Notes under the pieces: model-generated
What the model was told of the DNA's origin: nothing
Seen by the model: the letters and a program-made list of their open reading frames with translations, nothing else
The model's database searches: none
Position numbers and translations under genes: made by a program
Shown: positions 3,586 through 58,618 of the stretch, one piece after another
Layout: every line of letters begins with the position of its first letter
How positions within the stretch are numbered: position 1 is the first letter of the stretch
IMG/VR virus record: IMGVR_UViG_2786546475_000019
Location: 974-64,973 of that record
Strand: one strand, 5' to 3'
DNA: 64,000 nt
Origin: a virus

Positions 3586-5217
3586 ATGTCATACGCAGAC
3601 GAAACAACAGCAAAAGCAGCCGTAGCAAATGCCATTGGCAACGCAACAAGCGTCGATCCAGTGAGCAATACGGAACATGCTGACGTTCTTGATAATTTGA
3701 TCGAGAACATCTTCGCCGCTGATGGTATCACTGTGTATTTCGCCGAACCTCTGTCGGGACTTGGCGATGACGGCGACGTCACAATCTACGAAAACAAAAT
3801 CTACTCGAAAGCTGCCGGAACATGGTCCGAGGAACTTGAATTAACAAGCTGGACTTTCAATACTGCTGATCCTCCCACGTCCACGTCTCACACTTATGCA
3901 ATCTCGACAACCGGCCAATTATACGTAAACGTCGCCGGAACATGGACCTTGCAGCAGTTATCATTAGGCAAATACAAAGGTGCTCACTCAACCACCACAA
4001 AGTATTACGCCAATGATATTATCCTCTACTCAGGGGAATTGCAGTACGCTAACAGCACGCACAATCCTAAGACATATGACGCCGCAGACTGGACTTCGCT
4101 ACCTACTGCGTCATCAACCCACGTACTCCACGATGATATCTCAACACTTCCTTCCTCCCCGGACGGTTACACGCTTGAACTATATGACGGGATCGGCGAG
4201 GGGATGCTCTTTGAGCGGGTATCAAGTGCGTGGGTTTACCGAACACAGACAACAACTCCAGTTGTTGACCTAACCTCTGGCAACGCTTCAACGATTGCAG
4301 CATATTTGTCCGCTGGTCAAATATATCGGTACAATTTAACGACAGGCGAACCATACTACGTTGATAACGCCGGAGCACGGACCTCGCTTCCTCCAATCCA
4401 AACCGCCGTAACAGCCCTACCGTCAATTGTAGACGGTCCCGATCTATTGGTTTGGACCACGGACCCTGACGGGCATCGAGCGTACTTTAAAGGAGCTTCC
4501 GCGTACCAGAAGCTCCCACTTGTCCCAAGTATCCAAGAGTCCGATCAATCACTTTCGGAGAATCGGGAACTAGCGTACAACGCCCGAACACTATCATTCG
4601 ACGGTGACGGCACATTCCGCTTCGGAGACTTAAGCGACAACACCGACGGATATTATGCGGCCTTCAACTCCGGTGCGTTACAGTGGGCCAATGCTACACC
4701 GGAAACGAACCTCACGTCCATCACCCCTACCATTGTCAATTCGCAAAACCTAGCTCTGGTAAACGACGGCACTAGCAACAGTTTCACGTTGAAATACGCA
4801 GGAAGCCAAGATCAAGACTTTACGTTTCCAGCAGATCTTCCAGCTTTAGGTAATATTCTGGAAGTCACGGGCCTTGCAACAAGTTCCATTGTAGTAGGCT
4901 GGCGTAAGCCCGTAAAAGACTGGTTCACGCTAACCTCAGCCACCCCAACTGTGACAGTTGACGGCAATGATAGCAAACGCTTTAAACTTGACCCTGGGCA
5001 CACTCCAATTACAATTGCTTTCACTAATTGTGAGCAACATGATTTTGTTCTCCTCAAGATACGAGGTCACGCTACAAACTCAGTGTCAATGCCTGCCGGA
5101 GCAGACGGTGACGTTTTCTCTCTTAGTACGGATGATACAAAAGCAACTTTAGTCACAGCTATCATTGATGGTTCCGCCATCCATCTTGGCGTAATGAGGG
5201 ACGTATCATGGGCTTAG
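3586..5217 (+). CDS. putative tail fibre / receptor-binding protein
   Basis: 543 aa, Thr/Ser/Gly/Tyr-rich repetitive beta-type composition; adjacent to a beta-helix protein. Confidence 0.45.
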   Translation: MSYADETTAKAAVANAIGNATSVDPVSNTEHADVLDNLIENIFAADGITVYFAEPLSGLGDDGDVTIYENKIYSKAAGTWSEELELTSWTFNTADPPTSTSHTYAISTTGQLYVNVAGTWTLQQLSLGKYKGAHSTTTKYYANDIILYSGELQYANSTHNPKTYDAADWTSLPTASSTHVLHDDISTLPSSPDGYTLELYDGIGEGMLFERVSSAWVYRTQTTTPVVDLTSGNASTIAAYLSAGQIYRYNLTTGEPYYVDNAGARTSLPPIQTAVTALPSIVDGPDLLVWTTDPDGHRAYFKGASAYQKLPLVPSIQESDQSLSENRELAYNARTLSFDGDGTFRFGDLSDNTDGYYAAFNSGALQWANATPETNLTSITPTIVNSQNLALVNDGTSNSFTLKYAGSQDQDFTFPADLPALGNILEVTGLATSSIVVGWRKPVKDWFTLTSATPTVTVDGNDSKRFKLDPGHTPITIAFTNCEQHDFVLLKIRGHATNSVSMPAGADGDVFSLSTDDTKATLVTAIIDGSAIHLGVMRDVSWA

Positions 5218-7058
5218 GATTAGGATTAAACATGGGCTTGTTTCCTTTACCATCGGTTAAAGCAACATTGGACAACCGTCCTTTGTTCACGTCGCTTGCA
5301 TTTTTGCAATGGCGTCGCGATATAGTAACTGCAAAAGAACGCCCCACGTATTGGATCCCTCAAACAGAGTATTACGTCAGTGAATCGACCGGTAACGACG
5401 CTAACGCTGGAACAGAAGTCGCCCCTTGGCAAACACTTGAAAAAGCTCAACAAGTTCTTGACGCTTTGTCTGATGAATCGTATACCGTTATACGGCTCAA
5501 ACGTGGTGATACTTGGGAAGAAGAAGGAACTGTTTTAGCGGTAGACGGAAACTCGTGCTTACTGCGACTGACAAAGACGTTCAGCGGGATCAGTTCTTAC
5601 GGGTCCGGTGACCTGCCGTTTATCAATCAATTTGCTACCAAATACACGTCGGGTTGGACTGTTCACAGTGGGAACGTCTACGTCCGATCGGAAGCCAATG
5701 ATATTGTTAGCGTTCGGCTAACAACTGATCGCCTTGTACCTTTTTACGACGCCACAGACGCTACAGATTGTGCTACCGATATTGCTGACACAAACGGCTC
5801 ATATTTTTATGATGCGACTGGCAACAACTTATATGTCAACCTTGGCGGTACTGATCCGAATACAGTAACGATTGAAGCTGCAATTTCTAATGATGACACA
5901 GTTGAAGCGGTAGCACATGGTTGTTTCATCGAGAACATTCGGCTCGACGGCACGTTAAAAAGAACAACAAGGGACGAGCAGGCGGGTATCCGTTTAAATA
6001 TCAATGGCAGTGAAGTCGCAAGAATCGAGAACTGTGAAGCGTATTATGGTTCGTCTCACCTGATACACCAGAACGGTTTAACCGGGACTGGCGGCATCGG
6101 TATTATCAAGAATTGCAAAGCTGGCTATTCGCTCTGGAATACTGGCGGAAACACGATTTTCAATTCATACACATTAGGCGGCGATCAAGAGACTTATGTC
6201 CAAGACTGCGAGGTTCCTTATGGAACATTACCAGGTCACGAGTGGACGTCGACTAACTCAGCACACGATGCTTTAGATGGTTCAGCGTTTTATTGTCATG
6301 CTGGTGGCGGGGCAAACACTGGGTTTATCCTCGTCGATGGGATGAAGTGCGACCATGATAACGCTTGGGGTCCGCAAGAAGGGTCTTACAATGGTAGTGC
6401 TCCAGCAGCAGCAACAATCGAAGACGCCAAGGTAGTTGTCTTCGGAGAGGTCGTAGATAACAGCCGACTTGGGTTGCGATGTTTCCGATTATCACCTGCG
6501 AACGGAGTTGGAATTTGCAACACGTACACAGGAGGCTACGGCACCGATAGAAATTACCGAGCACTTTCAGCAACAAACCAAAGCGGCTTTATGTTTAATT
6601 GTCGCTTCGACGTTTCTCTCCCTGCTGGACTATTTAACGCTCACGGATTCTGGAACGGTTCTGGAACGTCAAATGTAAGCTGGTTCTTTAACCGTTTTAT
6701 CCAACGAGCTTCTCACGGATCGCATGATCTTGCGTTTAATTATGACTCCGTTTCTACATGGCCTGACAGCACGCTTTACAACAACGTTATCGCTCGCGTT
6801 GGAACCTATGATAACTCGGTCGCTATGTATAACGGCACTCCCGATTCCAACAACAATGCTCTGTATCAATTCAAAGGGGCGAACGCAGGAGCAAACTCAA
6901 TTGACATTACAACCGAGGCCGAAGCGGTTCAAGACACAGCAAATGTTGATACTTACGGTACATGGGAAGCTGCAAATACAGCAATCGGAGTTGTGCCTGA
7001 GTACGACAGGCTTCTGAACCCGCGAACAGCAACAACAAGCATTGGAGATTTGGCGTAA
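5208..7058 (+). CDS. right-handed beta-helix (pectate-lyase fold) tailspike / depolymerase-like protein
   Basis: N-terminal STGNDANAGTEVAPWQTLEKA motif typical of parallel beta-helix proteins; Asn/Gly-rich repeats; ATG overlaps the upstream stop. Confidence 0.55.
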   Translation: MGLGLGLNMGLFPLPSVKATLDNRPLFTSLAFLQWRRDIVTAKERPTYWIPQTEYYVSESTGNDANAGTEVAPWQTLEKAQQVLDALSDESYTVIRLKRGDTWEEEGTVLAVDGNSCLLRLTKTFSGISSYGSGDLPFINQFATKYTSGWTVHSGNVYVRSEANDIVSVRLTTDRLVPFYDATDATDCATDIADTNGSYFYDATGNNLYVNLGGTDPNTVTIEAAISNDDTVEAVAHGCFIENIRLDGTLKRTTRDEQAGIRLNINGSEVARIENCEAYYGSSHLIHQNGLTGTGGIGIIKNCKAGYSLWNTGGNTIFNSYTLGGDQETYVQDCEVPYGTLPGHEWTSTNSAHDALDGSAFYCHAGGGANTGFILVDGMKCDHDNAWGPQEGSYNGSAPAAATIEDAKVVVFGEVVDNSRLGLRCFRLSPANGVGICNTYTGGYGTDRNYRALSATNQSGFMFNCRFDVSLPAGLFNAHGFWNGSGTSNVSWFFNRFIQRASHGSHDLAFNYDSVSTWPDSTLYNNVIARVGTYDNSVAMYNGTPDSNNNALYQFKGANAGANSIDITTEAEAVQDTANVDTYGTWEAANTAIGVVPEYDRLLNPRTATTSIGDLA

Positions 7059-7309
7059 TGCTACTAAACATAACTGATAAACACGGTGTCACTGTGGGTG
7101 TTGTTGAAGCAGACACCTTGGAGAAAGCTTCCAAGCTCGCAAGAGATCACGTCACCAAGTTGGTAGATCCTCCTGCTCCTGACGGCACTCCAGGCATGAA
7201 GTACCCTAAGACTGAAAGCTCTGATTTGTTCATCGCATTCTTCCGAGAAGAAACTGATAAGCGACCAATATTGAAATTCAAATTCAAGCCACTTGATGTG
7301 ATCAAGTAG
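7058..7309 (+). CDS. hypothetical protein
   Basis: 83-aa ORF; TAATG overlap with the upstream gene. Confidence 0.5.
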   Translation: MLLNITDKHGVTVGVVEADTLEKASKLARDHVTKLVDPPAPDGTPGMKYPKTESSDLFIAFFREETDKRPILKFKFKPLDVIK

Positions 7310-7320
7310 TTAATAGACCA

Positions 7321-8034
7321 ATGAAAGAAATTTTAGATTCACTATCACTAATCGGGCTGTTTGTGCTATCCATCGTAACGATCATGCATTTCGTACAGCT
7401 TGACAATCGAGGCGAGTGGATGCGACAAGTGCAAGAAAATTTTGACTACGGACAGCGATGCAGCTTGCACGATTTGAAGCAAACCATCAAAGCAAACAAT
7501 TTAATAGAGCCTGATTTTGCACCGCGTCCTCCAGTCCCTGAACCGTTTTGGCGAGAAACTACAACGTCTGCAAAATCAGACACCTGCCCACATTGTAATG
7601 TACCAATGAGATTTTTTGATTGTGTTGGAACCGTTCGGGCGTGGCGTATTATCATCGCACATTCTCTGATCAGTGCGATGTATCTGGGTATTGCGTTTTT
7701 CCGTTTTCTTCCGGCTGGAATGGAAGCACGAACGCAAACGGAACGAGTTGTTTGGTATTCGCTCGCGTTTATCTTCCCGTTTTGCTGGGCTGCGGGATAC
7801 GGGACGACGATACTCGCCGGCTGGTTTCCTGCTTTGGCGTACTTTTTGAAAGAATCAGCGTGCTACGTTGACGCTGCATTTTGTGTTACTTTTCTATGGT
7901 CGACGCGAAATCAAAATTTGGTTTCGGTTACTGTTGATAGTTTTCGAGACGAAATTGAAGACATTGTCAACAACGAAGACTCTGACTTATCTCACGGCGA
8001 CCGCATTCAGCAGATTCGAGACTCTTTGCAATGA
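7321..8034 (+). CDS. multi-pass membrane protein
   Basis: several hydrophobic segments; CPHCN motif. Confidence 0.5.
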   Translation: MKEILDSLSLIGLFVLSIVTIMHFVQLDNRGEWMRQVQENFDYGQRCSLHDLKQTIKANNLIEPDFAPRPPVPEPFWRETTTSAKSDTCPHCNVPMRFFDCVGTVRAWRIIIAHSLISAMYLGIAFFRFLPAGMEARTQTERVVWYSLAFIFPFCWAAGYGTTILAGWFPALAYFLKESACYVDAAFCVTFLWSTRNQNLVSVTVDSFRDEIEDIVNNEDSDLSHGDRIQQIRDSLQ

Positions 8035-8408
8035 ATATCTGGCTCTTGATGCAAGAATCGACAGCCCCTGGAATGCCTGCATGGGTGGGGTTCGTCACTG
8101 GTACGGGAGGTGGTCTAGTGATGGCAATTTTCGGACTGATTGCGTTGTGGAAGCGAATGATCTTCAAGGAAACACAGTACGAAAAACGGCTCGAAACGAA
8201 AGACAAAGAAGTCAATCAAATCGGGCGAGAGTTCGTTGAACTATCGATAAAGATGTTGGAACGGGACGAAAAAAACCGGGAAAACGATAAGGCAATCCGC
8301 GATGGTTTCGACAGACTAATTGAGCACGTTAAAACCGACTCACTTAAAATGGAGAATTGGCGGAAAGAGGTGGATCGAATATTGGCACAGCTGGTACCCC
8401 GTAAGTAA
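8031..8408 (+). CDS. membrane-anchored coiled-coil protein
   Basis: N-terminal TM (FVTGTGGGLVMAIFGLIALW) followed by a charged helical region; ATGA overlap. Confidence 0.5.
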   Translation: MNIWLLMQESTAPGMPAWVGFVTGTGGGLVMAIFGLIALWKRMIFKETQYEKRLETKDKEVNQIGREFVELSIKMLERDEKNRENDKAIRDGFDRLIEHVKTDSLKMENWRKEVDRILAQLVPRK

Positions 8409-8430
8409 AACGCAAAACAAAAGAGAACAA

Positions 8431-9531
8431 ATGACGAATTTAAGAACCCTGCTGCTGCTTCTAACAATTGTTGTTTTTCCGTCCATTTGTATCGGACAAG
8501 AGGGTCCAGATATCACTCAATGGCTGAAAGACAAGATCGCGAACCACGAACCTATCAAGTTGGAGCGTGGCGATTACTTCATTACAGAAACGATCAAGCT
8601 TCCAGGCAAGTACGGATCTTCGATTGAGGGTGTCGGTGTGGCTGCTGCTCACTTGTCTTCTGCAAACCCATACAATTGGCAGTCGACACGCATCTTCTGG
8701 CGTGGTGAACCGAATGAAGCCATGTTTCGGGCAGATGGATCGAATCAAACATTTAAAAACCTCACTCTTGTCGGCAAGCCAAGCTACAACGGCTCGACAG
8801 TTGAGGGCGTCGTCGGCGTGAAAGTCTTAAAAGCTCGCGGGCTTGGAACAGGCAAGCATCGATTCGAAAGTGTTTGGTTCCAGAACTTACACTACGGAAC
8901 ACAATGGGGTGAGTCTGCTACAGGGGCAGGTGCAAATTGCGACGAATCGTATTTTGACTCTTGTACATTCATGCAATGCCATTCAGCGACACGGTACGAG
9001 CACAGCCAAGCACTCGGCTTTACGTACATGAATTGTGTCTATAAGCAAGTTGAACGGTGTCATGATATTCAAGCCGGTGGGCATATCACAGCGTACAAGT
9101 GTTTCGTATCACAACCACCAAGCGGCAAGAAAGTTAACTTCTTTCACTTCACCGATGAAGCACAACGACGATATCGTATTGGAACATCGGCTGGAATGAT
9201 CACAGCTTACAATCTTAAGGTGGATTATCAATCAAAAGAAAACTTCCGAGCAGTCTGGATGGACAGCGACGTGAACGGTGTAACGATCACGTTCCGAGAT
9301 TGCCAAGTATCATTCACGGACTACGGCAAGGAACTATTCATCAAGGCAGGTGGTCCTGCAAAGATCGTCATTGATAACTGTCGCTTTCCCGGATATACAA
9401 CCTCACGCTACCAATTGAATACAGATGATCGTGGATTGACGCCAACGATGCAACGACCAACGATGGAATATATTCCACGAGCGATCGATACGGACCCTGT
9501 TCCTTCACCTACACCTATCGGACAAGGCTAA
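8431..9531 (+). CDS. secreted beta-helix-like protein
   Basis: start moved to ATG 8431, giving a signal-like MTNLRTLLLLLTIVVFPSICIGQ; GDYFITETIKLPGKYGSSIEGVG resembles the pectate_lyase_3 N-terminus. Confidence 0.5.
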   Translation: MTNLRTLLLLLTIVVFPSICIGQEGPDITQWLKDKIANHEPIKLERGDYFITETIKLPGKYGSSIEGVGVAAAHLSSANPYNWQSTRIFWRGEPNEAMFRADGSNQTFKNLTLVGKPSYNGSTVEGVVGVKVLKARGLGTGKHRFESVWFQNLHYGTQWGESATGAGANCDESYFDSCTFMQCHSATRYEHSQALGFTYMNCVYKQVERCHDIQAGGHITAYKCFVSQPPSGKKVNFFHFTDEAQRRYRIGTSAGMITAYNLKVDYQSKENFRAVWMDSDVNGVTITFRDCQVSFTDYGKELFIKAGGPAKIVIDNCRFPGYTTSRYQLNTDDRGLTPTMQRPTMEYIPRAIDTDPVPSPTPIGQG

Positions 9532-10265
9532 TGGATTGGACTGTAGCTGTAACTGCTTTAATTGCTTCTTTGCTTGGTTCCGGGGCTACTGGTGGTGCGA
9601 TTGCTGCGTACTTCAAATTTCGTACAAACCAGCAAGCTGTAAAATATGAACAGCAAGAAGTGTTATTCAAACAGATAATGGAGAACGCGAACCGAGCAAC
9701 GGCAAGAGTTGATATCTTGCTCAACGAACTTGCGAAACGCGACGAAGCCATCACTGAACGCAACACTAAAATTGGACAGCTCCAAAACGAAGTTCACGCC
9801 CTATCCGAAAAGGTCGATCGGCTCCGCAAGCAGATTAAACAAATGGAGTCTAACCGAATAGCCTACGACACCATGCACGTAGTCGAAGGTATGATGGACA
9901 CGTTCCCGTTCCCAGCTTGGCTACACTCAGTTGGCGAGAATAAATGGTACGTCAACGACGCATATTGCAAAGCATTTGGAATACACCGCGACACGTTCTG
10001 GCAAGGGGTAAACATCTTGGCGATGTACCCCGCTGAAATTGCGGCAAAGTACGTTCAACATGATATGAAAGTGGTAGAGTCCAATATGGGTTCGCTGTTT
10101 ACCGAGCAAGTCAGCAAAAACGTGATGCAACACGATCCACAATCTGAATTTGAGTGTGACATTTACAAGATGCCAATTGTAGCAGGCGGGAAAAGATACA
10201 TTTTCGGGCTGGCAAAGCTTGGGCATGACGTATGGGGCAACAAACTAGCAACTATTTCAGACTAA
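9531..10265 (+). CDS. TM anchor, coiled coil and PAS-like domain protein
   Basis: N-terminal TM, heptad region (ITERNTKIGQLQNEVHALSEKVDRLRKQIKQME), C-terminal PAS-like pattern (WYVNDAYCKAFGIHRDTFWQGVNILAMYPAE). Confidence 0.45.
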   Translation: MDWTVAVTALIASLLGSGATGGAIAAYFKFRTNQQAVKYEQQEVLFKQIMENANRATARVDILLNELAKRDEAITERNTKIGQLQNEVHALSEKVDRLRKQIKQMESNRIAYDTMHVVEGMMDTFPFPAWLHSVGENKWYVNDAYCKAFGIHRDTFWQGVNILAMYPAEIAAKYVQHDMKVVESNMGSLFTEQVSKNVMQHDPQSEFECDIYKMPIVAGGKRYIFGLAKLGHDVWGNKLATISD

Positions 10266-10274
10266 GGTGATAAA

Positions 10275-10526
10275 ATGAATACCGTTATTATGGGGGTAAC
10301 AGTTAGTTGGAAAACTACTGTTGCTGCAATTCTTTCCTCTCTGGCTGCTATTTTTATGGTGCTAGCTGCTTATTTTGATGGCGACCCAGCCACGATCCCT
10401 AATTGGGAAACTGCAGCAATTGCCGTGTTGGCAATCGGCCAAATGATTATTGGGGTTTTTACTAAGGACAATGATAAGTCCACTGAAGACCATAAACTTC
10501 CTCGTAAACGATTGAGGACAAAATAA
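10275..10526 (+). CDS. small two-TM protein, holin-like
   Basis: 83 aa, two hydrophobic helices and a basic C-terminus (KLPRKRLRTK). Confidence 0.4.
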   Translation: MNTVIMGVTVSWKTTVAAILSSLAAIFMVLAAYFDGDPATIPNWETAAIAVLAIGQMIIGVFTKDNDKSTEDHKLPRKRLRTK

Positions 10527-11554
10527 TGGCTACTACCAAAACATTACTTCAAGGCTTTGACGGGCGGGAAGACTTTCGTGATATGCTTCGCGAAATGCGA
10601 ACGGCTGCCCTTCGGTCTTGGGACATTACTCTTGCAATACGTATTCGCAAAGTTCTTCGAAACAATAAACTGTTTGAAAAAGTCTACGACCATGCAACTG
10701 TAACTTCGGCTCAAGCTCTACTTGATAGTCCACGGCTCTCGGAATTTGGCGATGGGGAGTTTGGCAAATGGTTCCTCGATTGGTTCAAGAACGGTGGGGC
10801 TCAAGCTATCATTGAGTTCATTCGAGCATTGCTCCCGTTGTTTGGAGCTTTTATGAGCGTTCTGTTACCGCTTCTTATCACTTTGTCTTTGTGTGCCACG
10901 GCCCAAGGTCAAAGTATCAAAGGAGCCGAAACTGCTAAACCGGGATCGCTCGTTGTCTTAACGCCGGTGGATGCTGACGATGTTCGAACAGTTTGGAACT
11001 TGAATTACCCCGAACAATTCGAGGAGTATGCAGAAGAAAACGGCAAGCTTTTCATTGCAATGCCGTCAAAAACAATTTCGTTTTCACTTCTGGTGATTCC
11101 AAACGATACAACACTCCCAATTCGTAACCTACGTCATACAGTTTCTCCGTCTGACGCTCCAGTGGTTCCGGGCCCCGGTCCTGATCCAGTAGTGCCGAAA
11201 CCTCCAGAGATTGACGTAACTCAATCTCCAATTTATCAATTTGTCAAGAACAGTTTTGAGAGTATCCCGGACCCTAATAAGCGAGAAAGGGCCGGTAAGC
11301 TTGCAAAATCCTTTGGCATCATTTGTGCTCAAATCAAGAATAAAGAAATTACAACAGTCAACGACCTCTTGACTGATATTCGAGAGGCTAACCTGAAAGA
11401 TTGGCCCGAAGACTCTAGGCAACTGTGGACCTCTTTCCGTAACGGTATGGCTCGCCAGTTTGATACTTTGGAAGACGCTGGGGAGTTGGAGACCGTTGAC
11501 GATTTCTACCTTCATTTGAAAGCAATTCAAGTCGCTCTTGAGGAGTCAGTTTAA
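10526..11554 (+). CDS. hypothetical protein with a central TM segment and a Pro-rich linker
   Basis: 342-aa ORF; TAATG overlap. Confidence 0.5.
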   Translation: MATTKTLLQGFDGREDFRDMLREMRTAALRSWDITLAIRIRKVLRNNKLFEKVYDHATVTSAQALLDSPRLSEFGDGEFGKWFLDWFKNGGAQAIIEFIRALLPLFGAFMSVLLPLLITLSLCATAQGQSIKGAETAKPGSLVVLTPVDADDVRTVWNLNYPEQFEEYAEENGKLFIAMPSKTISFSLLVIPNDTTLPIRNLRHTVSPSDAPVVPGPGPDPVVPKPPEIDVTQSPIYQFVKNSFESIPDPNKRERAGKLAKSFGIICAQIKNKEITTVNDLLTDIREANLKDWPEDSRQLWTSFRNGMARQFDTLEDAGELETVDDFYLHLKAIQVALEESV

Positions 11555-12492
11555 TGTACCCAATTCGTAGATTACCCGACGACCTTATCGTCAGTGAAGG
11601 GTTAACAGCTAAACAAATCAAAAGACAAGACGTTGGCTGGGATGAAATTGATCTCCAGCTTGATAAAGCTTTTGGCCGAGAAAATGAAAACCGATGCCCG
11701 ATTTTTATTGCAGACACCGGTCTTCCTGAACATCCAGATATTCCTAAAGCCCAAGAAGCTTGGAATTTTACCGACGACCCTTCTGTTGTGGATTTGAACT
11801 TCCACAGCACTTGGATCAATGGTAAGATGACGGCGTACAACAATGATATTGGGTACGAAGGTATTTGCCCTGAGGATACTCCAGTATTCATACTTAAAGT
11901 CTTGAACAATCAGGGTTCTGGTTGGCGTATGCTTCAAGCAATGCGTAAAGCGTTAGATTTCTGGGTCAACCATCCTAAACGTCGCTCAGGGGAGTGGGTT
12001 GCGGCAGTTTATAATATGAGTTACGGGGGTGGCGGCTATTCACAAGATGAACAAATTTTGTTTAAGGATATGATAAAAGAGAACATTCTTCCGTTTGCTG
12101 CCAGCGGCAATGAAGGACGTTCGGCTCCCTCATTCCCTGCGAAATATGAAGGAGTTCTATCAGTTGGAGCTTATGACCCTCAACGAGAGAAAGCAAGCTT
12201 TACTAATTACGGCCCGTGGACTGATTTTGTTGCTCCCGGCGTCAACGTCCCTTCCACAATCGGCAAAAACAAGTACGGCCCATATAGTGGGACGTCAATG
12301 GCTTGCCCAATTAAAGCAGCGTGTGCCGCTAATTTTATCAGCTCTCGCCCTAATGATAAATGGATGCATGATGTTCCAGGTTATCAAGAAGCTGTACAAC
12401 CGTATATGGAGAATCTGCCCGGCACTTGGGATGGAGACGGAGTATTCCTTCCCGCAAAAGGAACAGTTCGCAACAAATACTTTTTCTGGTAA
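11554..12492 (+). CDS. subtilisin-like serine protease (peptidase S8)
   Basis: Asp motif IFIADTGL, His motif FHSTWINGK, oxyanion YNMSYGGGG, Ser motif YSGTSMACPIKAA; no signal peptide. Confidence 0.8.
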   Translation: MYPIRRLPDDLIVSEGLTAKQIKRQDVGWDEIDLQLDKAFGRENENRCPIFIADTGLPEHPDIPKAQEAWNFTDDPSVVDLNFHSTWINGKMTAYNNDIGYEGICPEDTPVFILKVLNNQGSGWRMLQAMRKALDFWVNHPKRRSGEWVAAVYNMSYGGGGYSQDEQILFKDMIKENILPFAASGNEGRSAPSFPAKYEGVLSVGAYDPQREKASFTNYGPWTDFVAPGVNVPSTIGKNKYGPYSGTSMACPIKAACAANFISSRPNDKWMHDVPGYQEAVQPYMENLPGTWDGDGVFLPAKGTVRNKYFFW

Positions 12493-12502
12493 AGGAGATC
12501 CC

Positions 12503-12961
12503 ATGAGATCACTACTATTATCAATGCTGACTTTGTCACTTGTTTGTTTTATTTCGTCTATTGGAACAGCAAGCACTCCGCTTACGTTTCAAGACGCTTT
12601 CAACCCCTGCCCTAACGGAGTGTGTCCAACTCCAGTACAAGGCGTCACGGTTCGCAAACCTTTGCTTCGCCCACAAACCACGATCTATGAAGCTTGGGAC
12701 GCGACACAAGGAGTTGTTCAATATTCCCAACCAGTGATAATTTCACAAGGAGTTGTTGAACAATTCACCGCCCCAGTCCAAGAGGTTATGACTACGGAAG
12801 TCGTTTACGAGTACACAACTTTATCAAACGCCATGTACTCGCAATGTGCGACTGCCAATATGGCAGTCGATATTCAACGACGGCGACGTAACTTGGTAAC
12901 GGCGTGGCGACAAAGACCTGGACTATTTGGATGGCGTAAACGACGAGGGCTATGTCAATGA
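12503..12961 (+). CDS. small secreted protein
   Basis: start moved to ATG 12503 (AAGGAG RBS at 12492); signal-like MRSLLLSMLTLSLVCFISSIGTAS; basic C-terminus. Confidence 0.5.
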   Translation: MRSLLLSMLTLSLVCFISSIGTASTPLTFQDAFNPCPNGVCPTPVQGVTVRKPLLRPQTTIYEAWDATQGVVQYSQPVIISQGVVEQFTAPVQEVMTTEVVYEYTTLSNAMYSQCATANMAVDIQRRRRNLVTAWRQRPGLFGWRKRRGLCQ

Positions 12962-13218
12962 ATCCAGTAGCTCACACCCTTCGATTGATATCAGTGACAG
13001 CAACAGCCGAAACTCTTAAGAGCCAAAACGATTTGTTCCACGGAGCTTCGGAAATTCGAGTGACCCCTGCTGCTGATATTACAATGAAGGATTTGCAGAC
13101 GGGAGCTTCTGTTACATTAACTTCCGGCCAAACACATTCCCTACCTGCCGCTAACGTTGCGACAGAATTTCAATTCACCACAAGTGGAGCCGAAGTGTTC
13201 CAAGTTTACTCCGCATGA
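12952..13218 (+). CDS. hypothetical protein
   Basis: 88-aa ORF immediately upstream of the terminase. Confidence 0.45.
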   Translation: MSMNPVAHTLRLISVTATAETLKSQNDLFHGASEIRVTPAADITMKDLQTGASVTLTSGQTHSLPAANVATEFQFTTSGAEVFQVYSA

Positions 13219-14894
13219 TAACTGAACTGTTTGACCATTTAGCCGAAAGCTTAACCCACAGCACAATCACAAATTGTGCTCAGTGGGCGTTAGAGCGTAG
13301 GGTTATGGGACGACCGTTCGAGGGCCCATGGAATTTTAAATTATTTCCGTGGTTATACACTCCGCACGTTTCCAACCATCCATTTCGGTTGGCATTGAAA
13401 GGTGCTCAATTAGGGTTTACAGAGTGGGCAATTAACGAAGCTTTTTACGCTATTGATCATAAGCGTTCAAATGTTTTATATTGTCTGCCTACAAAGGGCA
13501 ACGCGGGTGACTTTTCAACCACCCGCTTCAACCCTGCCCTAGCCCTTAGCCCCTATATCGCGAACTTGTTCTCTGGTGCAGATAATGTATCATTGAAGAC
13601 GGCAGGTTCTCGGTCACTGTATATTAGGGGTTCAAAGGCTAGAGCAGACTTGAAGTCTTTGCCAATTACTGTTTTGATACTTGACGAAATTGATGAAATG
13701 CCTAAAGAGTCAATCTCTCTAGCTCATCATCGTCTTGATGGACAAGCCGTAGGTTCAACTTCATTGCTTGAATTATCAACTCCTACTCTACCTGATATGG
13801 GGATTGACGCTGAGTACAAATTATCAAACCAGATGATTTACGTATTCCAGTGCCCAGGATGTAGCAAGTATATTGACTTGCAATACCCTAGGAATTTTAA
13901 GCTAACTGCTACGCGAATGAACGATCCTGACATTGAAAAGAGTTATTTCTTTTGTCACGAGTGTGATTACGTAATAGACCACGAAGCCAAACCAGAGATT
14001 TTTAAATGCAAGGAAATGGGCGGCACGGGTCACTACAGACCGCAAGTAAAATATGCTGACCGAGAAGGGTACTATGTAAATCAAATGTACTCCTCGGCCA
14101 AAGGCGGAACGCCAATTGAGTGGGCTAAAGCCGTAATACTTGCAGAAACAAATCCGTCAAAAGAACAAGAGCTTTGGAACTCTAAAGTTGGTAAAGGCCA
14201 TGCAACAGAGAACGCAAAGCTAGAAGAAGGAGTCTTAGAGCAGCATAAGCGAAACTACACTATTGCCGACTACGAACTCCATGATAATCGTATTAGAACA
14301 ATTGGGTGTGATGTTGGAGCAGTTTGCGATTTAGTGTGCTTAGAGTGGACGTGGGAGTCTGATCTTGGCCTGCCTAATGATAGATACCGTCCTCGACTGG
14401 TAGGTGAATTATCATTGCCCCGATCTTCGGAAGATGCCCGAGCCATTTTGGACTACTTCCGAAAGATGAACGCTCATATGTTTGTTATGGATTCCGAACC
14501 TGAAAGTCGTTTTGCTCGACAAGTCATCAATTTGCTAGGCGACTATGGGTTCATGTGTGATTATGGGAAAGGATACAAAGCAGGACAAGTTAATGTTAAA
14601 GAAGAAGATGGCTTTATCACTGTAAATCGAACTACATGGTTGGATATAACTATGTCTCGATTCACAGCTGCTAACAAAGACGGAACAGATTTACCTAGCG
14701 ACATAAGCGAACGATTCCTTCAACATATGACAGCCCCTGCTAGATATTACAAAGATGATGCAAATGGCGACCCCATAGCTATTTACAAAAATGAAAAAGC
14801 GGATCACTTGTTTCATGCGTGGACCTACGCTGAGATAGGATTGCCTCTTTACTTCCTAACAGCCGAAGGCGAAGATATCGATGTTATCTTTTAG
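13215..14894 (+). CDS. terL: terminase large subunit, GpA-like
   Basis: LKGAQLGFTEWAINEAFYAIDH...LYCLPTKGNAGDFSTTRFNPAL and zinc-ribbon FQCPGCSKYIDL resemble the lambda GpA family; followed by a portal-sized ORF. Confidence 0.75.
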   Translation: MITELFDHLAESLTHSTITNCAQWALERRVMGRPFEGPWNFKLFPWLYTPHVSNHPFRLALKGAQLGFTEWAINEAFYAIDHKRSNVLYCLPTKGNAGDFSTTRFNPALALSPYIANLFSGADNVSLKTAGSRSLYIRGSKARADLKSLPITVLILDEIDEMPKESISLAHHRLDGQAVGSTSLLELSTPTLPDMGIDAEYKLSNQMIYVFQCPGCSKYIDLQYPRNFKLTATRMNDPDIEKSYFFCHECDYVIDHEAKPEIFKCKEMGGTGHYRPQVKYADREGYYVNQMYSSAKGGTPIEWAKAVILAETNPSKEQELWNSKVGKGHATENAKLEEGVLEQHKRNYTIADYELHDNRIRTIGCDVGAVCDLVCLEWTWESDLGLPNDRYRPRLVGELSLPRSSEDARAILDYFRKMNAHMFVMDSEPESRFARQVINLLGDYGFMCDYGKGYKAGQVNVKEEDGFITVNRTTWLDITMSRFTAANKDGTDLPSDISERFLQHMTAPARYYKDDANGDPIAIYKNEKADHLFHAWTYAEIGLPLYFLTAEGEDIDVIF

Positions 14895-16407
14895 AAACAC
14901 TTCCGACTCGTTCAACTTTGATTTGAATATTACCAAATGGTATGAAGCTTATTATGGCGGGTATCAATTCATTGATAAATATCTGTACCAACAATCAAGC
15001 GAAAAGACAACTGAATTTGAGATACGTAAAAAGATTGCGTACAACCCTCCAGTATTGCAAAACGAGGTAGATCGTATTTTAAGAGCCGTCCAAGAACGTT
15101 TGCACTTGGTCAAACGGCGTAACGGCTCTCGAACCTATCAACAAATGGTAGCAGGAGAGAACGGCGGAGTAGATTATTTTGAGACCAACATGAATTTGTT
15201 TATGGCGGATCAAGTTCTACTTCACTTACTGATAGGCGGCGGGTGTGGAATCTTTATTGATAATTACGGCCCCGAAGATTTAACGTTTGAAGGGAACACT
15301 CACCCGTTCCTTCGAGTAGTTCCTCGTTACAAAATCACGCAAATGGAATACGGAGCTAATCGACAATTTGATAAAGTTTGTTTTGAAAATTTCAAATTTG
15401 AACGAGATTCAGACGGTCAACTTTGGTACACAGTTTACGACACGGACCCCGAAAAAGAGAAAGAGATCGATACACAAGGCCAATTGGAACTAAGCCGTAT
15501 TCCTTTTGTGTGGATTGAAATGCCACGACCCTTGTTGCGAGATGCAGCTGATATGCAAATTGCTTTGTTGAACCAACACTCAACTGAGCTTGAGTTCGCT
15601 ACCAAGTACAACTTTCCAATTTATTACGAGTACACGTCTCCTCGCGGTGGCGGAGACGTGCGTGATAAAAATCGAGAAATTGAACTTACCAAAACAAAAG
15701 GACGTAAAGTTAAACAAGGTTCTGGCCCTCCAGGTTATGTTACCCCGCCAACTGAAAATTTGGACGCGTCCATGCGTAAGAGTGAGCAGATCACTCAATT
15801 GATAAAAGACACTATCAATTCGAACATGGAAGAAAATAAAGAGGATGGTCAAAGCGGCTTGTCCTCATTGGGTCGCTTAATGGAGCGAGCGGAAAATGAA
15901 GTAGCCACGCTTCTAGAAGAATATATCAATGAAGGCGGACAAGCAAGAGTTTGTTACCCAAAAGTGTTCACCCTTCAAACGGTTGAAGAACGAACAGCTG
16001 AAGCTGAACTGTTTGAAAAAATGAGCAATTGCGTACCATCCAAAACGTTTCGAATGGTAACGCATAAGCAAAAAGCAGAAACGCTACTTGGCCCTGTTCT
16101 AACTACCGAAGAACTTGATGTTATATTCAAAGAGATCGAAGAAGCTCCGGCTTCGTGTGTAAACCCTGAAATGCTTTTAAAGCTTCTAGAAAAAGGAGCT
16201 TTGACTACTCATTTAGTTAATGAAATTCTTGGGTATCCTGCTGACGAAGCAGATAAAGCTTTGGAGCAACTTGCTGACCGAATGGCCGTCACTGTGGTAG
16301 CTCAAAGCAAAGCTAAAGAAGTTCAAAGTGATAGTTTACCAGACGACGCTCGACAAGCTCAACGCGGCGAGCAAGATGTTCCTAATGATATTGGAGAGCC
16401 TACCTAA
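14881..16407 (+). CDS. portal protein
   Basis: 508 aa, directly after terL with an overlap; acidic C-terminus; called by synteny. Confidence 0.6.
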   Translation: MLSFRNTSDSFNFDLNITKWYEAYYGGYQFIDKYLYQQSSEKTTEFEIRKKIAYNPPVLQNEVDRILRAVQERLHLVKRRNGSRTYQQMVAGENGGVDYFETNMNLFMADQVLLHLLIGGGCGIFIDNYGPEDLTFEGNTHPFLRVVPRYKITQMEYGANRQFDKVCFENFKFERDSDGQLWYTVYDTDPEKEKEIDTQGQLELSRIPFVWIEMPRPLLRDAADMQIALLNQHSTELEFATKYNFPIYYEYTSPRGGGDVRDKNREIELTKTKGRKVKQGSGPPGYVTPPTENLDASMRKSEQITQLIKDTINSNMEENKEDGQSGLSSLGRLMERAENEVATLLEEYINEGGQARVCYPKVFTLQTVEERTAEAELFEKMSNCVPSKTFRMVTHKQKAETLLGPVLTTEELDVIFKEIEEAPASCVNPEMLLKLLEKGALTTHLVNEILGYPADEADKALEQLADRMAVTVVAQSKAKEVQSDSLPDDARQAQRGEQDVPNDIGEPT

Positions 16408-16871: not shown

Positions 16872-17738
16872 ATGTTTGTTCCATTTTATCAACGCTTTCA
16901 ACTACCATTTTTGAATGTTGACGACGGTGCTGGCGGTTCTGGTGGCAGCAGCGAAGGTGATACTGGAGAAGGTGATACTGGAGAAGGAGGCTCTTTTGAA
17001 CCTATCACTTCTCAAGATCAACTAAACCGTGTCATCGGTTCGCGAATTGCTAAAGTCAAAACGCAAGCTGAGAAGCTACAGAGTCAACTGGAAGCTGTAA
17101 AGCAAGAGAAGCGTGCAACTCTTGAACACTTGAAAGAGCTTGAACAAAATCATTCGTTAAGTGAAGAACAACGAGAGAAGAATCGGTCAAAAATCCAAGA
17201 ACTCGAAAACTCTCTAATGACAGAGAAAGAACGAGCTGAAAAAAGGGCCAAAGAACTCTCTACAAAACATCAAAAAGAGTTGAAAGCTCTGGAAGATGAA
17301 AAAGACACTTGGCGGTCTCGTTATGAAAATTCAAGCATTGAACGTGCTATCAAAGACGCGGCTCTTGAACATGGAGCTAAAGTTCCAAACCAGATTTTTA
17401 GTATGCTTCGCGGCAACACGAAACTGGAAGAAATTGTTGAAGATGGGCAAGCAACTGGCAGGTTCCAATCTGTGACTACTATCATGGGTTACGGAGAAGA
17501 TGGAGAAAATGTTACAGATTTCACTTTGCCAACCGCAGAAGCAATTGCTAAGATGCGGGAAGATGGCTTGAATGATAATCTGTTCGACTCCAAACAAAAA
17601 GCTGGAACTGGTCGAGGCGGACGAACCGGGACTCAACGATACACCGCAGATCGTCCACCTGTTCCTGCCGATTTCGGCGGAGATATGGACGCTTTCAAAG
17701 ACGCTTACGACGACTGGCGTAAGAAATTTTTAACTTAA
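16872..17738 (+). CDS. scaffolding protein
   Basis: 288 aa, highly charged coiled coil, between portal and capsid genes. Confidence 0.6.
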   Translation: MFVPFYQRFQLPFLNVDDGAGGSGGSSEGDTGEGDTGEGGSFEPITSQDQLNRVIGSRIAKVKTQAEKLQSQLEAVKQEKRATLEHLKELEQNHSLSEEQREKNRSKIQELENSLMTEKERAEKRAKELSTKHQKELKALEDEKDTWRSRYENSSIERAIKDAALEHGAKVPNQIFSMLRGNTKLEEIVEDGQATGRFQSVTTIMGYGEDGENVTDFTLPTAEAIAKMREDGLNDNLFDSKQKAGTGRGGRTGTQRYTADRPPVPADFGGDMDAFKDAYDDWRKKFLT

Positions 17739-17757: not shown

Positions 17758-19122
17758 ATGGCTTCGCCTAACGATGCGTTGATTCCTGAGCTATGGGCCC
17801 AGGAAGCTATTAACTTGATGTGGGAAAATTTCCTTTTCGGGCAATTGTTCCACACCGAATTCAAAAACCAAATTGCTGTTGCTGGCGACGTGGTTAACAC
17901 CTCTCGACCTGTTCGGATGCGTGCTCACCGTAAGAACAGCGACATTCAAACTATCAATGACCAAACCGCACGTTCAACTAATATCAAAGTTGAACTGAAC
18001 CAGCAAATTTACGTTTCGTTCTTGCTGGGTTCACGGGACCGGTCTTTGAGTTTTGTTGACTTGACAAGCAAGTATCTTGTCGAAGCGATGCAAGCTCAAA
18101 TCCGAATGATCGATCGCTCGATTGCTGGACACATTGCATTGTTCTTGGCCAACGCAGTTGGTACTTCAGGAACTATCAGTGCGTCTAACGCTTACAACCA
18201 ACTCACGTTGGCTCGTAAGAAACTGAACGATTACAATGTTCCTGAGCCAAACCGTCGGTTTGTCTTTGGCAATCGTTCGGATATCGCGTTCTTGCAAGAT
18301 GATCGCTTTATCAATAGCGATTACAACGGCATGGGCGGTACAGCGGTTCGCGAAGCGTATCTTGGTCGAACTCTCGGCTTTGATATGTTCCGTTCGCCAA
18401 ACTTGCCTATGGCTGAGAACTGCCCTCAACAGTCGCCAACGACTGTTGACGGAGCGGCAGCAGCAGGAGCTACGACTATTGACGTAGCAACTGGTACAGC
18501 CCCAGCTGTGAACTCGTACATCGAGATCGCAGGGGAAGGTTCTCCAAACTTGGTCACGGGAGTTTCAACTGATACTCTCACCTTGAAGCGTCCTCTGCGT
18601 AACGCCGTTGCTGACGGTGCCGCAGTCAAGATTTTCTCTCAAGGTGCTGTGAATAACGCAGCAGGCCACGATGCTGGTGATAACTTTGACGCCAAGGCAA
18701 ACGGTTACGCTGCTAACTGGGCCGAGGACATTGCTGTTGACGGTAACGTCCCAGCAGTTGGTCAAATTATCTCGTTTGCTTCGCATGACGCCGAGTACGT
18801 TGTTGTGAATCTCGAAGGTAGCAACATTCTTTTGGATCGCCCATTGGAAGCTGCAATCGATGACAATGACACTGTTGCTTTGGCTGGTGACTTCGAATTG
18901 AACTTCGCGTTTAACCCGAAAGCTATCGGTATCATTTCCCGTCCATTGGCTGTGGAGATGGAAGGAACTGGCGTCCGTTCAGCAATCGCCGAAGGTTATG
19001 GCTTTGGTGTTCGCGTGGATATCGGTTTTGACGGGACCAAGCAAGCACAACGTGTGACCATCAGCTCGTTGCTCGGTCTCAAGCAGTTGGATGAAGAACG
19101 CGGAGTACCTCTCCTTGCGTAA
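17758..19122 (+). CDS. major capsid protein
   Basis: 454 aa, GGAG RBS, directly after the scaffold; Ala/Gly/Val-rich. Confidence 0.7.
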   Translation: MASPNDALIPELWAQEAINLMWENFLFGQLFHTEFKNQIAVAGDVVNTSRPVRMRAHRKNSDIQTINDQTARSTNIKVELNQQIYVSFLLGSRDRSLSFVDLTSKYLVEAMQAQIRMIDRSIAGHIALFLANAVGTSGTISASNAYNQLTLARKKLNDYNVPEPNRRFVFGNRSDIAFLQDDRFINSDYNGMGGTAVREAYLGRTLGFDMFRSPNLPMAENCPQQSPTTVDGAAAAGATTIDVATGTAPAVNSYIEIAGEGSPNLVTGVSTDTLTLKRPLRNAVADGAAVKIFSQGAVNNAAGHDAGDNFDAKANGYAANWAEDIAVDGNVPAVGQIISFASHDAEYVVVNLEGSNILLDRPLEAAIDDNDTVALAGDFELNFAFNPKAIGIISRPLAVEMEGTGVRSAIAEGYGFGVRVDIGFDGTKQAQRVTISSLLGLKQLDEERGVPLLA

Positions 19123-24600: not shown

Positions 24601-25241
24601 TCAATGAGTCCTTGACTATTAACTTAACAGACGGGGAGTTTGCAGATCGGTTTGCTAATAAAGATAAAGCGTTACAAACCATAATTAAAGACGCCCAAAA
24701 ACAAATTAGGCGATCCAAAGCTAGGTTAACTCCGGGTTGGCTTGTAAAGGAAGACAGCATTAGAGCGGAGAAGTTGACTCTGCGAGAAGCTGAACAGACT
24801 TTAAAAAGGGCTATGGCTCAACAAAAAACTCTTAAAGATCTTTATCGCCAAGTTAAGGACTTTAACCTCAAGCCTACTGATAAAAAAGCCGAAGCTTTGA
24901 TGGATACTTTAGGTAACCTTCCAGGTTTCGAAAAGTTTACTAATAAGATTGGGCAAGCAGCTGATGAAGTGAACCGGTTACGTAACCTTTCGCTCCAACC
25001 ATTTGATTTGAAAATTGACGCTGACGCCAGTTTGGAAACAATTCGAAAATTGCAGAAAAATATAGACATGTTGCGAGAAGGGTTGGAGTTGACACCAATT
25101 AATTTTGCTCCGCTTCAACAACCTACTACTCAAAACAACATTACGTTCAACGTATCTCCGGGCCAAGGACCAGATGCTTTGGTGGCGGACGTTACTGATA
25201 AAATTTACGATGCCTTTAGACGAGGATTGATAAACGTATGA
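21642..25241 (+). CDS. tail tape measure protein
   Basis: 1199 aa, long coiled-coil/helical regions with a central hydrophobic Gly/Ala-rich segment; canonical position. Confidence 0.85.
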   Translation: MAKQYDIDTQPAIKSLADLTSMVGKLTKKSETYNDRQRTANRALKTAGDRLVTFKDNVKHAASGVRSLNTALDKMDTTNDNFNKLNTAAGVLGRRLDSLETKAGTTIIRLGELRTAAGRAAGALEREKKIIGELNSSLSQMNQRFKRMVQIFDDKNQKLNLQQRAMLADARAMGQGTKSANLLSRTLRRLRDIVGTFAGYGALFLITNELRQSIGSAKEYAKAISEIRTISDRAAVSSQEWTNKLLEQSNAYGFTFLDQAEAAYQSLSNQVTNAGDTFAFLRSEAALSMVAVSSLEAATNSTTATLNAFGDSAGAASRVNAILFKTVEEGRIRLEDMANTIGRVSILSSQLNISFTEQQAALTQLTKLGVRTEEAMTLLRNVELKLLKPSERMSELFKEWGFTSGQAAVETLGLAGVMEKFVETAKQNGDVAAELGDIFNRLRAIVGVAGLTQASLTEEMEKFENASESALGAFLERINSIDTRANRQIQQFKNTFVSEFGAPILKVLVETAEGMGGMEAATIQLIRNLKQLVTIGGTVATALGVLATGRGVYAQVTYWTNQYRIATLANTAALSAEQVALVQASRARIAYALTSLGVAGGVALIAYQIYQATQAHEDYASSVRQAAAEFRNNFGPDGLKAYETLNVEINNTTEAALKQTRAMRRAFGESAAAITRNLNALEAANDSTINALDESISAYVDKMESKFQKILRESAKISAKLANNIAQGTAATQQVDLSLRVRRQVSNINQGADPLMGYKKLFKQLEAEAFAALDKGDKQRADNLFAEVDKLVSEYRKRYTNIKAPTLPIPTIPANATPMMRRRYRGYIENIKKQNAEIKKATADDKAELNRKFEEGQIKFYQRRNDKIKEYIELLKKQKAAEDKAREVMTQKFKTFENIFEQVDEAKTGDEVRSLTNKFKTASAGVLDPTERLKFIRDLNQKALALDEKAEIERKRVLVARAKETQEAYLKTRDELIKRQEEARRKLNESLTINLTDGEFADRFANKDKALQTIIKDAQKQIRRSKARLTPGWLVKEDSIRAEKLTLREAEQTLKRAMAQQKTLKDLYRQVKDFNLKPTDKKAEALMDTLGNLPGFEKFTNKIGQAADEVNRLRNLSLQPFDLKIDADASLETIRKLQKNIDMLREGLELTPINFAPLQQPTTQNNITFNVSPGQGPDALVADVTDKIYDAFRRGLINV

Positions 25242-31748: not shown

Positions 31749-32255
31749 ATGATACTTCAATGGCTTTCTGATCTGCTTCAAATGTTCACGGACCTCGTTC
31801 CTCGGCCTTTGATTGTGCGGGCTGACGAGGAGCTAGTATCATTTGTCTTTGGTAAATACACTAGGAAGCTTGGGCCAGGTTGGTACATTTCTTGGCCAGC
31901 TTTTGAAGAATTAGAAGTAGTTCAAGTCAAAAGAGATTTTGTTTCTCGCCAACAGAAATTTTGTAAAAACGGCATCACTTATGCTTATTCTTGGCAAGTG
32001 CCTTACGAAATTACTGATGCCTTAAAGATGGTAGTTAACACGTACGACTACCAAGAGACAATTGCTGATTTTGTAGAAGTGTCTTTAGCGGAGTGTTGGC
32101 AAAACTTTGGACCTGCCGAAATTTGTAACCTTGAAACACAAGATAAAGTGTTTGATAAAGTTCGCGGTATTTTGGAAGAGTACGGGGTTGAAATTAAAGC
32201 GTTTCGTATCACCTCGCACTCCGAAGTAATTGCTTTATCCATTTGGGAGAAATAA
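31749..32255 (+). CDS. SPFH/band-7-like protein
   Basis: VRADEELVSFVFGKYTRKLGPGWYISWPAFEELEVVQV matches the N-terminal SPFH pattern. Confidence 0.4.
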   Translation: MILQWLSDLLQMFTDLVPRPLIVRADEELVSFVFGKYTRKLGPGWYISWPAFEELEVVQVKRDFVSRQQKFCKNGITYAYSWQVPYEITDALKMVVNTYDYQETIADFVEVSLAECWQNFGPAEICNLETQDKVFDKVRGILEEYGVEIKAFRITSHSEVIALSIWEK

Positions 32256-58586: not shown

Positions 58587-58603
58587 TAACAAACCTCATT
58601 AAC

Positions 58604-58618
58604 AAATTGATATCATTT
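58604..58618. promoter_or_regulatory. near-palindromic operator-like site AAATTGATATCATTT in the primase leader
   Basis: related to the AAATGATA / TATCATTT half-sites. Confidence 0.45.

Follow-up and report, generated by a model that had tools for sequence, protein, structure and literature searches.

The 64,000-nucleotide (nt) stretch of viral DNA analysed here (positions 974 to 64,973 of IMG/VR record IMGVR_UViG_2786546475_000019; hereafter the window) carries, between tail-fibre-like genes and the gene of the large terminase subunit (TerL), a cassette that encodes a signal-less subtilase of peptidase family S8. The core of this cassette, which consists of an N-domain protein, an exported partner with an immunoglobulin (Ig)-like domain and a protease without a signal peptide, was found in 13 different phage backbones, and the protease belonged to family S8 in eight of them and to the papain family C1 in the other five. 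The exported C-terminal domain of the partner followed the class of the protease: a helical domain was present in 8 of 8 S8-type cassettes and a different domain in 5 of 5 C1-type cassettes, and the Ig domain and the N-domain were common to both. Since an exported domain covaries with an enzyme that has no signal peptide, the two are expected to meet outside the cytoplasm, which would require a breach of the membrane. We tentatively read positions 10526-12961, probably together with 9531-10526, as a mobile, holin-gated and envelope-directed protease cassette for lysis or egress, and rate this reading at slightly short of an even chance.

The window was compared with seven contigs carrying relatives of the S8 protease (L001, L002, L005 and L013-L016) and with five contigs of the C1 type (L021-L023, L027 and L028); scans of IMG/VR and the JGI metagenomes with profiles of the partner gave L020, L021 and L025-L028. 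The backbones are diverse: DNA polymerase and primase genes are the neighbours in one, another is of the Mu-F/portal_3 type, and the others differ again. In the S8 contigs, a signal-peptide protein of ca. 240-275 amino acids (aa) always preceded the protease, a signal-peptide protein of 134-220 aa always followed it, and a protein of ca. 100-160 aa ending in a hydrophobic helix was always encoded farther upstream. The stop codon of the partner and the start codon of the protease overlap or immediately adjoin, with an overlap of 1 nt in the window. The C1 cassettes encode an N-domain protein and an Ig partner homologous to the window protein (E = 1e-9 to 1e-33), and their counterpart of the S8 slot holds a protein of 262-283 aa with the papain signature (Gln, Cys, the His of NHAV, and SWG). 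One of these enzymes scored above the gathering threshold of Pfam PF00112 Peptidase_C1 (E = 2.4e-6), and all five are homologous; their only PDB profile matches, which were weak, were to papain-family enzymes, and their N-termini are hydrophilic like those of the S8 enzymes.

Small membrane proteins, either holin-like or with a transmembrane (TM) helix plus a coiled coil, always adjoin the cassette. It lies directly upstream of the terminase gene in the window, L014, L023 and L027, and after the tail-fibre genes in L021 and L022. The recurrence of the cassette with exported or membrane partners and its usual position, either closing the late operon or just before the terminase, fit a role in lysis or at the envelope. 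Genes for class-3 lipases or alpha/beta-hydrolases were present just upstream of it in L013 (5485-6375), L021 (9153-9809), L022 (5837-6496) and possibly L002 (8100-8747), and the window has none. The lysis cassettes of mycobacteriophages include lipolytic enzymes, the LysB proteins (PMC6116114), which offers an analogy for these flanking genes. Besides, a gene of the Acb2/Tad1-hairpin family (a family of anti-CBASS/Thoeris sponges) and a Cpn10 (GroES) homologue were observed right after the cassette of L001 (17450-17680), and an integrase is encoded at 1-936 of L023, a phage with a C1-type cassette. Some cassette-bearing phages are therefore temperate, and a prophage copy could reveal the host.

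The protease at 11554-12492 matched Pfam PF00082 Peptidase_S8 (E = 2.7e-28; 99.5 bits against a cut-off of 21.8) as its sole Pfam domain, with no I9 prodomain, and PHROG 3677 'protease' (1.4e-38); among NCBIfam models, only generic S8 subfamilies were hit, with scores far under their cut-offs. The catalytic residues D54 (ADTG), H84 (HST) and S248 (GTSM) and the oxyanion residue N186 (SGNE) are invariant in 13 clade members, and the triad aligns with that of intracellular subtilisins. Its nearest solved relatives are subtilisin Savinase, BPN' and intracellular subtilisins (PDB profiles, E ca. 1e-35 to 1e-42). The protease was judged to lack a signal peptide because its N-terminus is hydrophilic, as it is in all 13 clade members. 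The complete triad proposed in the initial annotation, which had been made from the letters of the window alone, was thereby borne out, and the lack of a signal peptide fits the cytoplasmic location given there. Export through the Tat pathway by way of an RR pair was considered and rejected, since the pair is not conserved and no hydrophobic stretch follows it. Membership of a defence system was likewise rejected, as PADLOC gave only a generic 'subtilase' match.

The clade comprises 13 close relatives with 44-70% identity, all of them metagenomic, and generic subtilases reach at most ca. 38% (mostly at most 36%). The intracellular subtilisins (ISPs) of Bacillus and Planococcus (MEROPS S8A; PDB 2x8j, 2wv7 and 7xr8) share with the phage enzyme the S8A fold, the triad, the absence of a signal peptide and of I9, and a short N-terminal extension, and the identity to named Bacillales S8 peptidases of the intracellular subtilisin type was up to ca. 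36-38%. However, the phage clade is separate from them. Its N-terminal extension is ca. 50 aa long, and L7-P8, shared by at least 90% of the clade, aligns near the ISP motif 'LIPY', the full motif (LIPY/F) being absent; the clade is further distinguished by an inserted HPKRRSGEW segment, by a conserved C-terminal PGxWDG(D/R/K)GVF tail and by being always embedded in the cassette. The S8 'protease' genes of cultured phages (Bacillus Herelleviridae, e.g. vB_BsuM-Goe3; PHROG 3677) also encode S8 domains, with 28-34% identity, but these genes are located in early regions among small hypothetical genes and are without the cassette. Subtilase genes in cultured phages have thus already been annotated.

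The gene upstream of the protease, whose product had been described as a TM/Pro-rich protein, unites two genes that occur separately in all the other phages examined: residues 1-112 correspond to the N-domain protein and residues 124-340 to the signal-peptide Ig partner. The fusion fixes the topology, with the N-domain in the cytoplasm, a single membrane helix and the remainder outside, and the versions encoded by separate genes presumably have the same topology. The partner had no match in 50,697 phage records and is absent from isolated phages. A cryptic muralytic or lysozyme-like fold in the 342-aa protein was ruled out; it consists of an Ig-like domain and a helical bundle, and only Ig matches were obtained in PDB and BFVD.

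Downstream of the protease, the 152-aa protein has a typical signal peptide and its gene a good Shine-Dalgarno site, in agreement with the secreted protein proposed at first; a good site also precedes 10275. Exported proteins of the same architecture are encoded downstream of the protease in L001, L002, L005, L013-L016, L021 and L027. What they share is a signal peptide followed by a C-x-(N/G)-G-x-C loop, a middle part of low complexity and a tail rich in Arg, in many cases with Cys as its last residue; sequence similarity was detectable only among those of L002, L013 and L014. Of the 13 backbones, 10 have an exported protein with such an Arg-rich tail after the protease (8 of 8 of the S8 type and 2 of 5 of the C1 type), and none was seen in L022, L023 and L028. 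The 152-aa protein was also considered as a lipoprotein or spanin, and this was rejected, as no proper lipobox was seen by eye. Of the small membrane proteins next to the cassette, those of L001, L005, L015 and L027 have two helices and that of L021 has four, and the remaining phages have TM-coiled-coil proteins.

We examined whether the phage encodes a conventional muralytic enzyme. Pfam and PHROGs, neither of which sufficed alone, jointly covered nearly all open reading frames (ORFs) of the window of at least 45 aa. The Pfam scan left out four packaging and head genes that had already been identified, and the PHROGs scan left out several late ORFs (within 55980-60403 and 61415-63872) and the three Pfam-annotated genes at 36344-37168, 37586-38236 and 44791-45816. 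Small ORFs were scanned joined by linkers, and 'Serglycin' matches were the sole linker artefact. In the window ORFs scanned, neither library gave a match to lysozyme, amidase, CHAP, M15/M23, SLT or NlpC/P60 domains. No muralytic match was present among the precomputed Pfam records for the ca. 7 kb of the genome outside the window, and no muralytic domain was found among the Pfam matches on record for ca. 110 kb of S8-cassette neighbourhoods in seven other phages. The initial finding by eye that the 64 kb lack such motifs is thus upheld by both libraries, and no standard endolysin, which would have spoken against an unconventional system, turned up elsewhere in searches at the level of profile hidden Markov models (HMMs). 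At this sensitivity, no muralytic enzyme was detectable in the genome. The fold-level check for cryptic muralytic folds that had been suggested was made for the 342-aa protein, which has no lysozyme-like fold; the other window ORFs were covered at the profile level.

The initial annotation had treated nine genes in 7321-12961, whose ORF coordinates are as given there, as one system (Table 1). This grouping did not hold, as 7321-8408 travels with the tail-fibre block in the sister genomes L008 and L009. Positions 5078-8413 of the window have no counterpart in these genomes, and the flanks are 90-99% identical. The block holds a 616-aa fibre-like protein, an 83-aa ORF, the 237-aa polytopic membrane protein and the 125-aa TM-coiled-coil protein, and four unrelated genes replace it in the sister genomes (415, 241, 98 and 114 aa; L008 5163-7888), which encode a lectin-like protein, one other protein and two small TM-coiled-coil proteins. 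Because the membrane proteins of 7321-8408 are swapped along with the fibre gene, they belong to a swappable tail-fibre or host-range block and not to the protease cassette. Membrane proteins that covary with a receptor-binding gene could be receptor-blocking or superinfection-exclusion factors. From 8413 on, the sequence is conserved; in L008, identity amounts to 96% for the beta-helix protein and to 100% for all genes from 9531 up to TerL. Judged from these comparisons, the true unit is 10526-12961, and it probably extends to 9531-12961.

Table 1. Features of the window in and around the protease cassette
Feature	Position	Strand	Basis or remarks
Polytopic membrane protein, 237 aa	7321-8034	+	Host-range block
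TM-plus-coiled-coil protein, 125 aa	8031-8408	+	Host-range block
Signal-peptide protein, probably of a pectate-lyase-like right-handed beta-helix family	8431-9531	+	Distant homologues
Protein with Gly/Ala-rich N-terminal helix, coiled coil (ca. 35-110) and PAS-like region (119-227)	9531-10265	+	Candidate member of the extended cassette
Holin-like protein, 83 aa	10275-10526	+	Two TM helices (12-30 and 44-62; hydropathy), highly charged C-terminus
Bitopic partner protein, 342 aa	10526-11554	+	N-domain 1-90, membrane helix ca. 94-122, Ig-like domain 128-210, Pro-rich linker 212-232, five-helix C-terminal domain 235-341
Signal-less S8A subtilase of intracellular-subtilisin type, cassette enzyme	11554-12492	+	Pfam, triad, PDB profiles
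Exported protein, 152 aa	12503-12961	+	Signal peptide, C-x-N-G-x-C-P disulphide-loop motif, low-complexity middle, Arg-rich C-terminal tail ending in Cys
88-aa ORF	12952-13218	+	Overlap-coupled to the cassette upstream and to TerL downstream
Large terminase TerL	13215-14894	+	PHROG 675, E = 2.3e-69
Portal	14881-16407	+	Late region
Scaffold	16872-17738	+	Head module
Major capsid protein	17758-19122	+	Head module
Tape measure	21642-25241	+	Tail genes after it

Two genes between the host-range block and the holin-like gene were also considered. The putative beta-helix protein of 8431-9531 is conserved in its own phage lineage and lies outside the recurrent cassette. It has a typical signal peptide, and the beta-helix first ascribed to it found indirect support through homologues: the protein itself had no Pfam match, and 9 of the 45 aligned among its 159 distant homologues did (5 Beta_helix and 4 Pect-lyase_RHGA_epim). 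A weak PDB match to the N-terminus of a polysaccharide lyase was also obtained (E = 0.04), and the protein is probably an exported polysaccharide-degrading enzyme. The description of the protein of 9531-10265 as a TM-coiled-coil-PAS protein stood for the coiled coil; the PAS domain scored below the Pfam threshold (E = 0.006; 17.0 bits against 22.6), and the N-terminal helix is weakly hydrophobic. The protein also matched PHROG 312, which is Rz-like (E = 0.001), as one of 32 matches that nearly all fall within the coiled-coil region. In L021 and L028, the gene directly before the cassette encodes a TM-PAS protein, again with a PAS domain below threshold. The two proteins share homology (E = 7e-10), and no homology was detectable between them and the window protein, which has the same position and a similar architecture. 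The N-terminal helix of the window protein (9531-9620) is rich in Gly, Ala and Ser (TVAVTALIASLLGSGATGGAIAAYF) and recalls the signal-anchor-release domains of some lysis proteins.

If the cassette acts on the envelope as we propose, the 342-aa partner would enter the inner membrane late in infection, with its N-domain in the cytoplasm and its Ig-like domain, Pro-rich linker and helical domain in the periplasm. Sec would export the 152-aa protein with its Arg-rich tail and, independently of it, the beta-helix enzyme. Meanwhile, the S8 protease, which is signal-less and ISP-like, would build up in the cytoplasm in a latent state, presumably restrained by its N-terminal extension. The two-helix holin-like protein would then permeabilise the membrane and allow the protease to reach the periplasm, where it may meet the class-specific C-terminal domain of the partner for docking, regulation or cleavage. 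Finally, the protease may cut proteins of the envelope, such as tethers between the wall and the outer layer or those of an S-layer, or its exported partners, or proteins of both kinds, which would help to breach the envelope. ISPs are inhibited by a short N-terminal LIPY/F propeptide, and the marine ISP that has been studied requires calcium (PMC6220982); such latency and calcium dependence would therefore suit a switch from the cytoplasm to a seawater periplasm. The unconventional lysis or envelope-degrading system suggested by the initial annotation is in line with the mobility of the cassette, its exported and membrane partners and its position, once it is confined to part of the nine genes. 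That the protease stands in for the endolysin is unlikely in our estimation; it may instead assist a muralytic enzyme that has gone unrecognised. We are just as doubtful that the cassette is a new kind of lysis system, in which a general endopeptidase, interchangeably a subtilase or a papain, would be gated by a holin and served by a class-specific periplasmic receptor or regulator.

Several observations weigh against a function in lysis or egress. No subtilase or papain is known to cleave the stem peptides of peptidoglycan; a host walled by peptidoglycan would therefore still need a muralytic enzyme. The 83-aa protein has the two helices and the charged tail for which it was first called holin-like, and it gave no significant match to a holin family (PHROG 297 holin, E = 0.063). 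The cassette of L001 lies among replication genes, the S8 genes of cultured Bacillus phages sit in early regions and not in lysis clusters, and searches of 185,579 species genomes with the profiles of the S8 clade and the partner yielded no prophage copy. Ca. 45 window ORFs are without annotation, and the fold checks covered the 342-aa window protein and the protease of the sister locus L021. An exported partner that is translationally coupled to the protease at 1:1 could equally be an inhibitor. The cassette would then be a protease with its cognate inhibitor or immunity protein, or a module for the maturation of a pro-protein, that is, an accessory set that makes or controls a secreted effector rather than one for lysis. 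The covariation of the C-terminal domain with the protease class is what a class-specific inhibitor or substrate should show, and the overlap of stop and start codons is consistent with such a pair. Ig-fold inhibitors have been reported for an intracellular subtilisin (IPI of B. subtilis; Pfam BsuPI) and for papain-like proteases (chagasin), and many IPI homologues are exported, having signal peptides or being type II membrane proteins (PMC3901451). These inhibitors resemble the partner as Ig-like beta-sandwich proteins associated with an intracellular subtilisin or a papain-like protease. However, the partner matched neither IPI nor chagasin in sequence or in specific fold, the domain that covaries with the protease class is not the Ig domain, and the genes of IPI lie apart from those of subtilisins (PMC3901451). 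We consider an inhibitor or maturation module to be rather unlikely. The S8 enzyme may alternatively remain in the cytoplasm as a host-takeover or recycling protease that degrades host proteins or defence factors, with exported neighbours unrelated to it in function. The lack of a signal peptide, the closeness to intracellular subtilisins among cellular relatives, the early genes of unknown function among which the Herelleviridae homologues lie and the match, albeit generic, to the PADLOC 'subtilase' model are all compatible with this. Such a role, however, leaves unexplained the strict synteny and the start/stop overlap with exported partners in 13 backbones as well as the covariation of the exported domain with the protease class, and it is at odds with the shared orientation of the cassette and the late structural genes; it appears distinctly improbable.

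A conventional endolysin might also lie elsewhere in the genome in unrecognisable form, in which case the cassette would have another role at the envelope, such as the destruction of receptors or surface proteins for superinfection exclusion or for freeing progeny from debris. The many unannotated window ORFs, the restriction of the fold check among window proteins to the 342-aa protein and the novel endolysin folds that are still emerging leave room for such an enzyme, and the nearby host-range block also encodes membrane proteins. Endolysin families are among the best represented in Pfam and PHROGs. Despite this coverage, none was detected in the genome or in the seven related cassette neighbourhoods, and a cytoplasmic protease would be unable to reach surface receptors before the membrane is breached. 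We therefore regard a hidden endolysin with another envelope role as quite unlikely. Finally, the S8 enzyme could be a protease for capsid or virion maturation, as the location of the L002 cassette downstream of portal and Mu-F-like head genes might suggest. Neither S8 nor C1 is known as a family of prohead proteases. As was noted initially, the window protease lies outside the portal-to-capsid interval and the usual prohead families; that interval holds an adaptor-like ORF and the scaffold gene, and the head module, with its scaffold and major capsid protein, has no slot for a protease. The partners are, moreover, exported, and the position of the cassette varies among backbones. A maturation enzyme is thus extremely improbable, and the envelope-directed protease cassette remains the reading we favour.

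The window is most of a tailed-phage genome of ca. 71.5 kb that was assembled repeatedly from the Tara Oceans marine metagenomes; one source files an identical window protein under an 'Acidobacteria bacterium' metagenome-assembled genome. The ca. 7 kb outside the window join its end back to its start and encode ParB, an A-family DNA polymerase, a ligase and small ORFs. The late region is on the plus strand (856-33612) and comprises the fibre-like genes, the cluster under study, TerL, and the head and tail genes. From 7321 to the terminase, most adjacent genes overlap by 1-10 nt, and the remainder are spaced by ca. 10-22 nt; the 88-aa ORF before TerL had no match to a Pfam or PHROG family. Terminator-like sites numbered 18 against 12.1 ± 3.8 expected from shuffles, which is no notable enrichment. 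The strongest terminator-like hairpin of the region (2232-2256; an 11-bp stem with 7 GC pairs, then a T run) is just 3' of a 453-aa gene (856-2217) whose end is an (EA)n repeat. At the end of the tail-gene block, an SPFH/Band-7 domain protein is encoded at 31749-32255 (Pfam, E = 6.9e-13), adjoining an exonuclease-like gene at 30531-31748.

The minus strand carries genes for replication and nucleotide metabolism, a sigma-70-type factor, thymidylate synthase and CsrA. The sigma-70-family factor, with regions 2 and 4, is encoded at 37586-38236, and CsrA-like regulators were observed in the window (44384-44770), in L001 (1762-2133) and, in two copies, in L022 (12126-12314 and 12605-12805). Since the phage encodes a sigma-70-type factor and CsrA, its host is bacterial. 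No DNA similarity to cultured phages was found among the 50,697 phage records, the terminase is only ca. 23% identical to those of SPO1- and Twort-like phages and gives no clue to the host, scans of IMG/VR and the JGI metagenomes with the terminase gave no match, and a scan of the window for tRNA genes found none. Two further proteins were observed on the way: a small protein (51285-51629) with a long N-terminal Gly-Tyr/Gly-Asp repeat (GYGTGYGTGYGYGDGYGYGYG...) and no family match, and a 186-aa beta-rich protein with a signal peptide, encoded on the minus strand (49587-50147) among genes of the early or replication side.

The cassette resembles canonical holin/endolysin/spanin cassettes in its small membrane protein with a charged tail, its signal-less enzyme that would need lesions in the membrane to get to its target, its exported partners and its tight packing, and also in its location next to the terminase or after tail genes and in the modular exchange of the enzyme between phages. 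It differs from them in that the enzyme is a general endopeptidase (S8 or C1) and not a muralytic hydrolase, in that no outer-membrane spanin with a lipobox was seen by eye among the exported proteins, and in that the N-domain, Ig/Pro-rich and Arg-tailed proteins match no lysis family in Pfam or PHROGs. Other lysis enzymes are different as well: the LysB esterase of mycobacteriophages works alongside a normal endolysin, and the Pei enzymes of methanogen viruses cut the isopeptide bonds of pseudomurein in archaea, whereas the host of the present phage is bacterial. A match to PeiR rested on a low-confidence fold model (predicted local distance difference test, pLDDT, of 42). Beyond the protease, the cassette corresponds to no Pfam, PHROG, NCBIfam or PADLOC family, and no description of it was found in the literature on phage subtilase or papain lysis cassettes.

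If the cassette is indeed a device for lysis or egress, proteases would join the short list of enzymes that phages release to exit cells. This would account for lysis by some uncultured marine phages that apparently have no endolysin and would hint at host envelopes held together by protein; lysis based on a protease would suit marine bacteria in which protein layers maintain the envelope or in which peptidoglycan is scarce or absent. That two unrelated proteases occur, paired with partner domains that match them, is a natural experiment and a handle on how such enzymes may be silenced in the cytoplasm and activated outside. These proteases and partner domains could also serve as regulated pairs of protease and binder.

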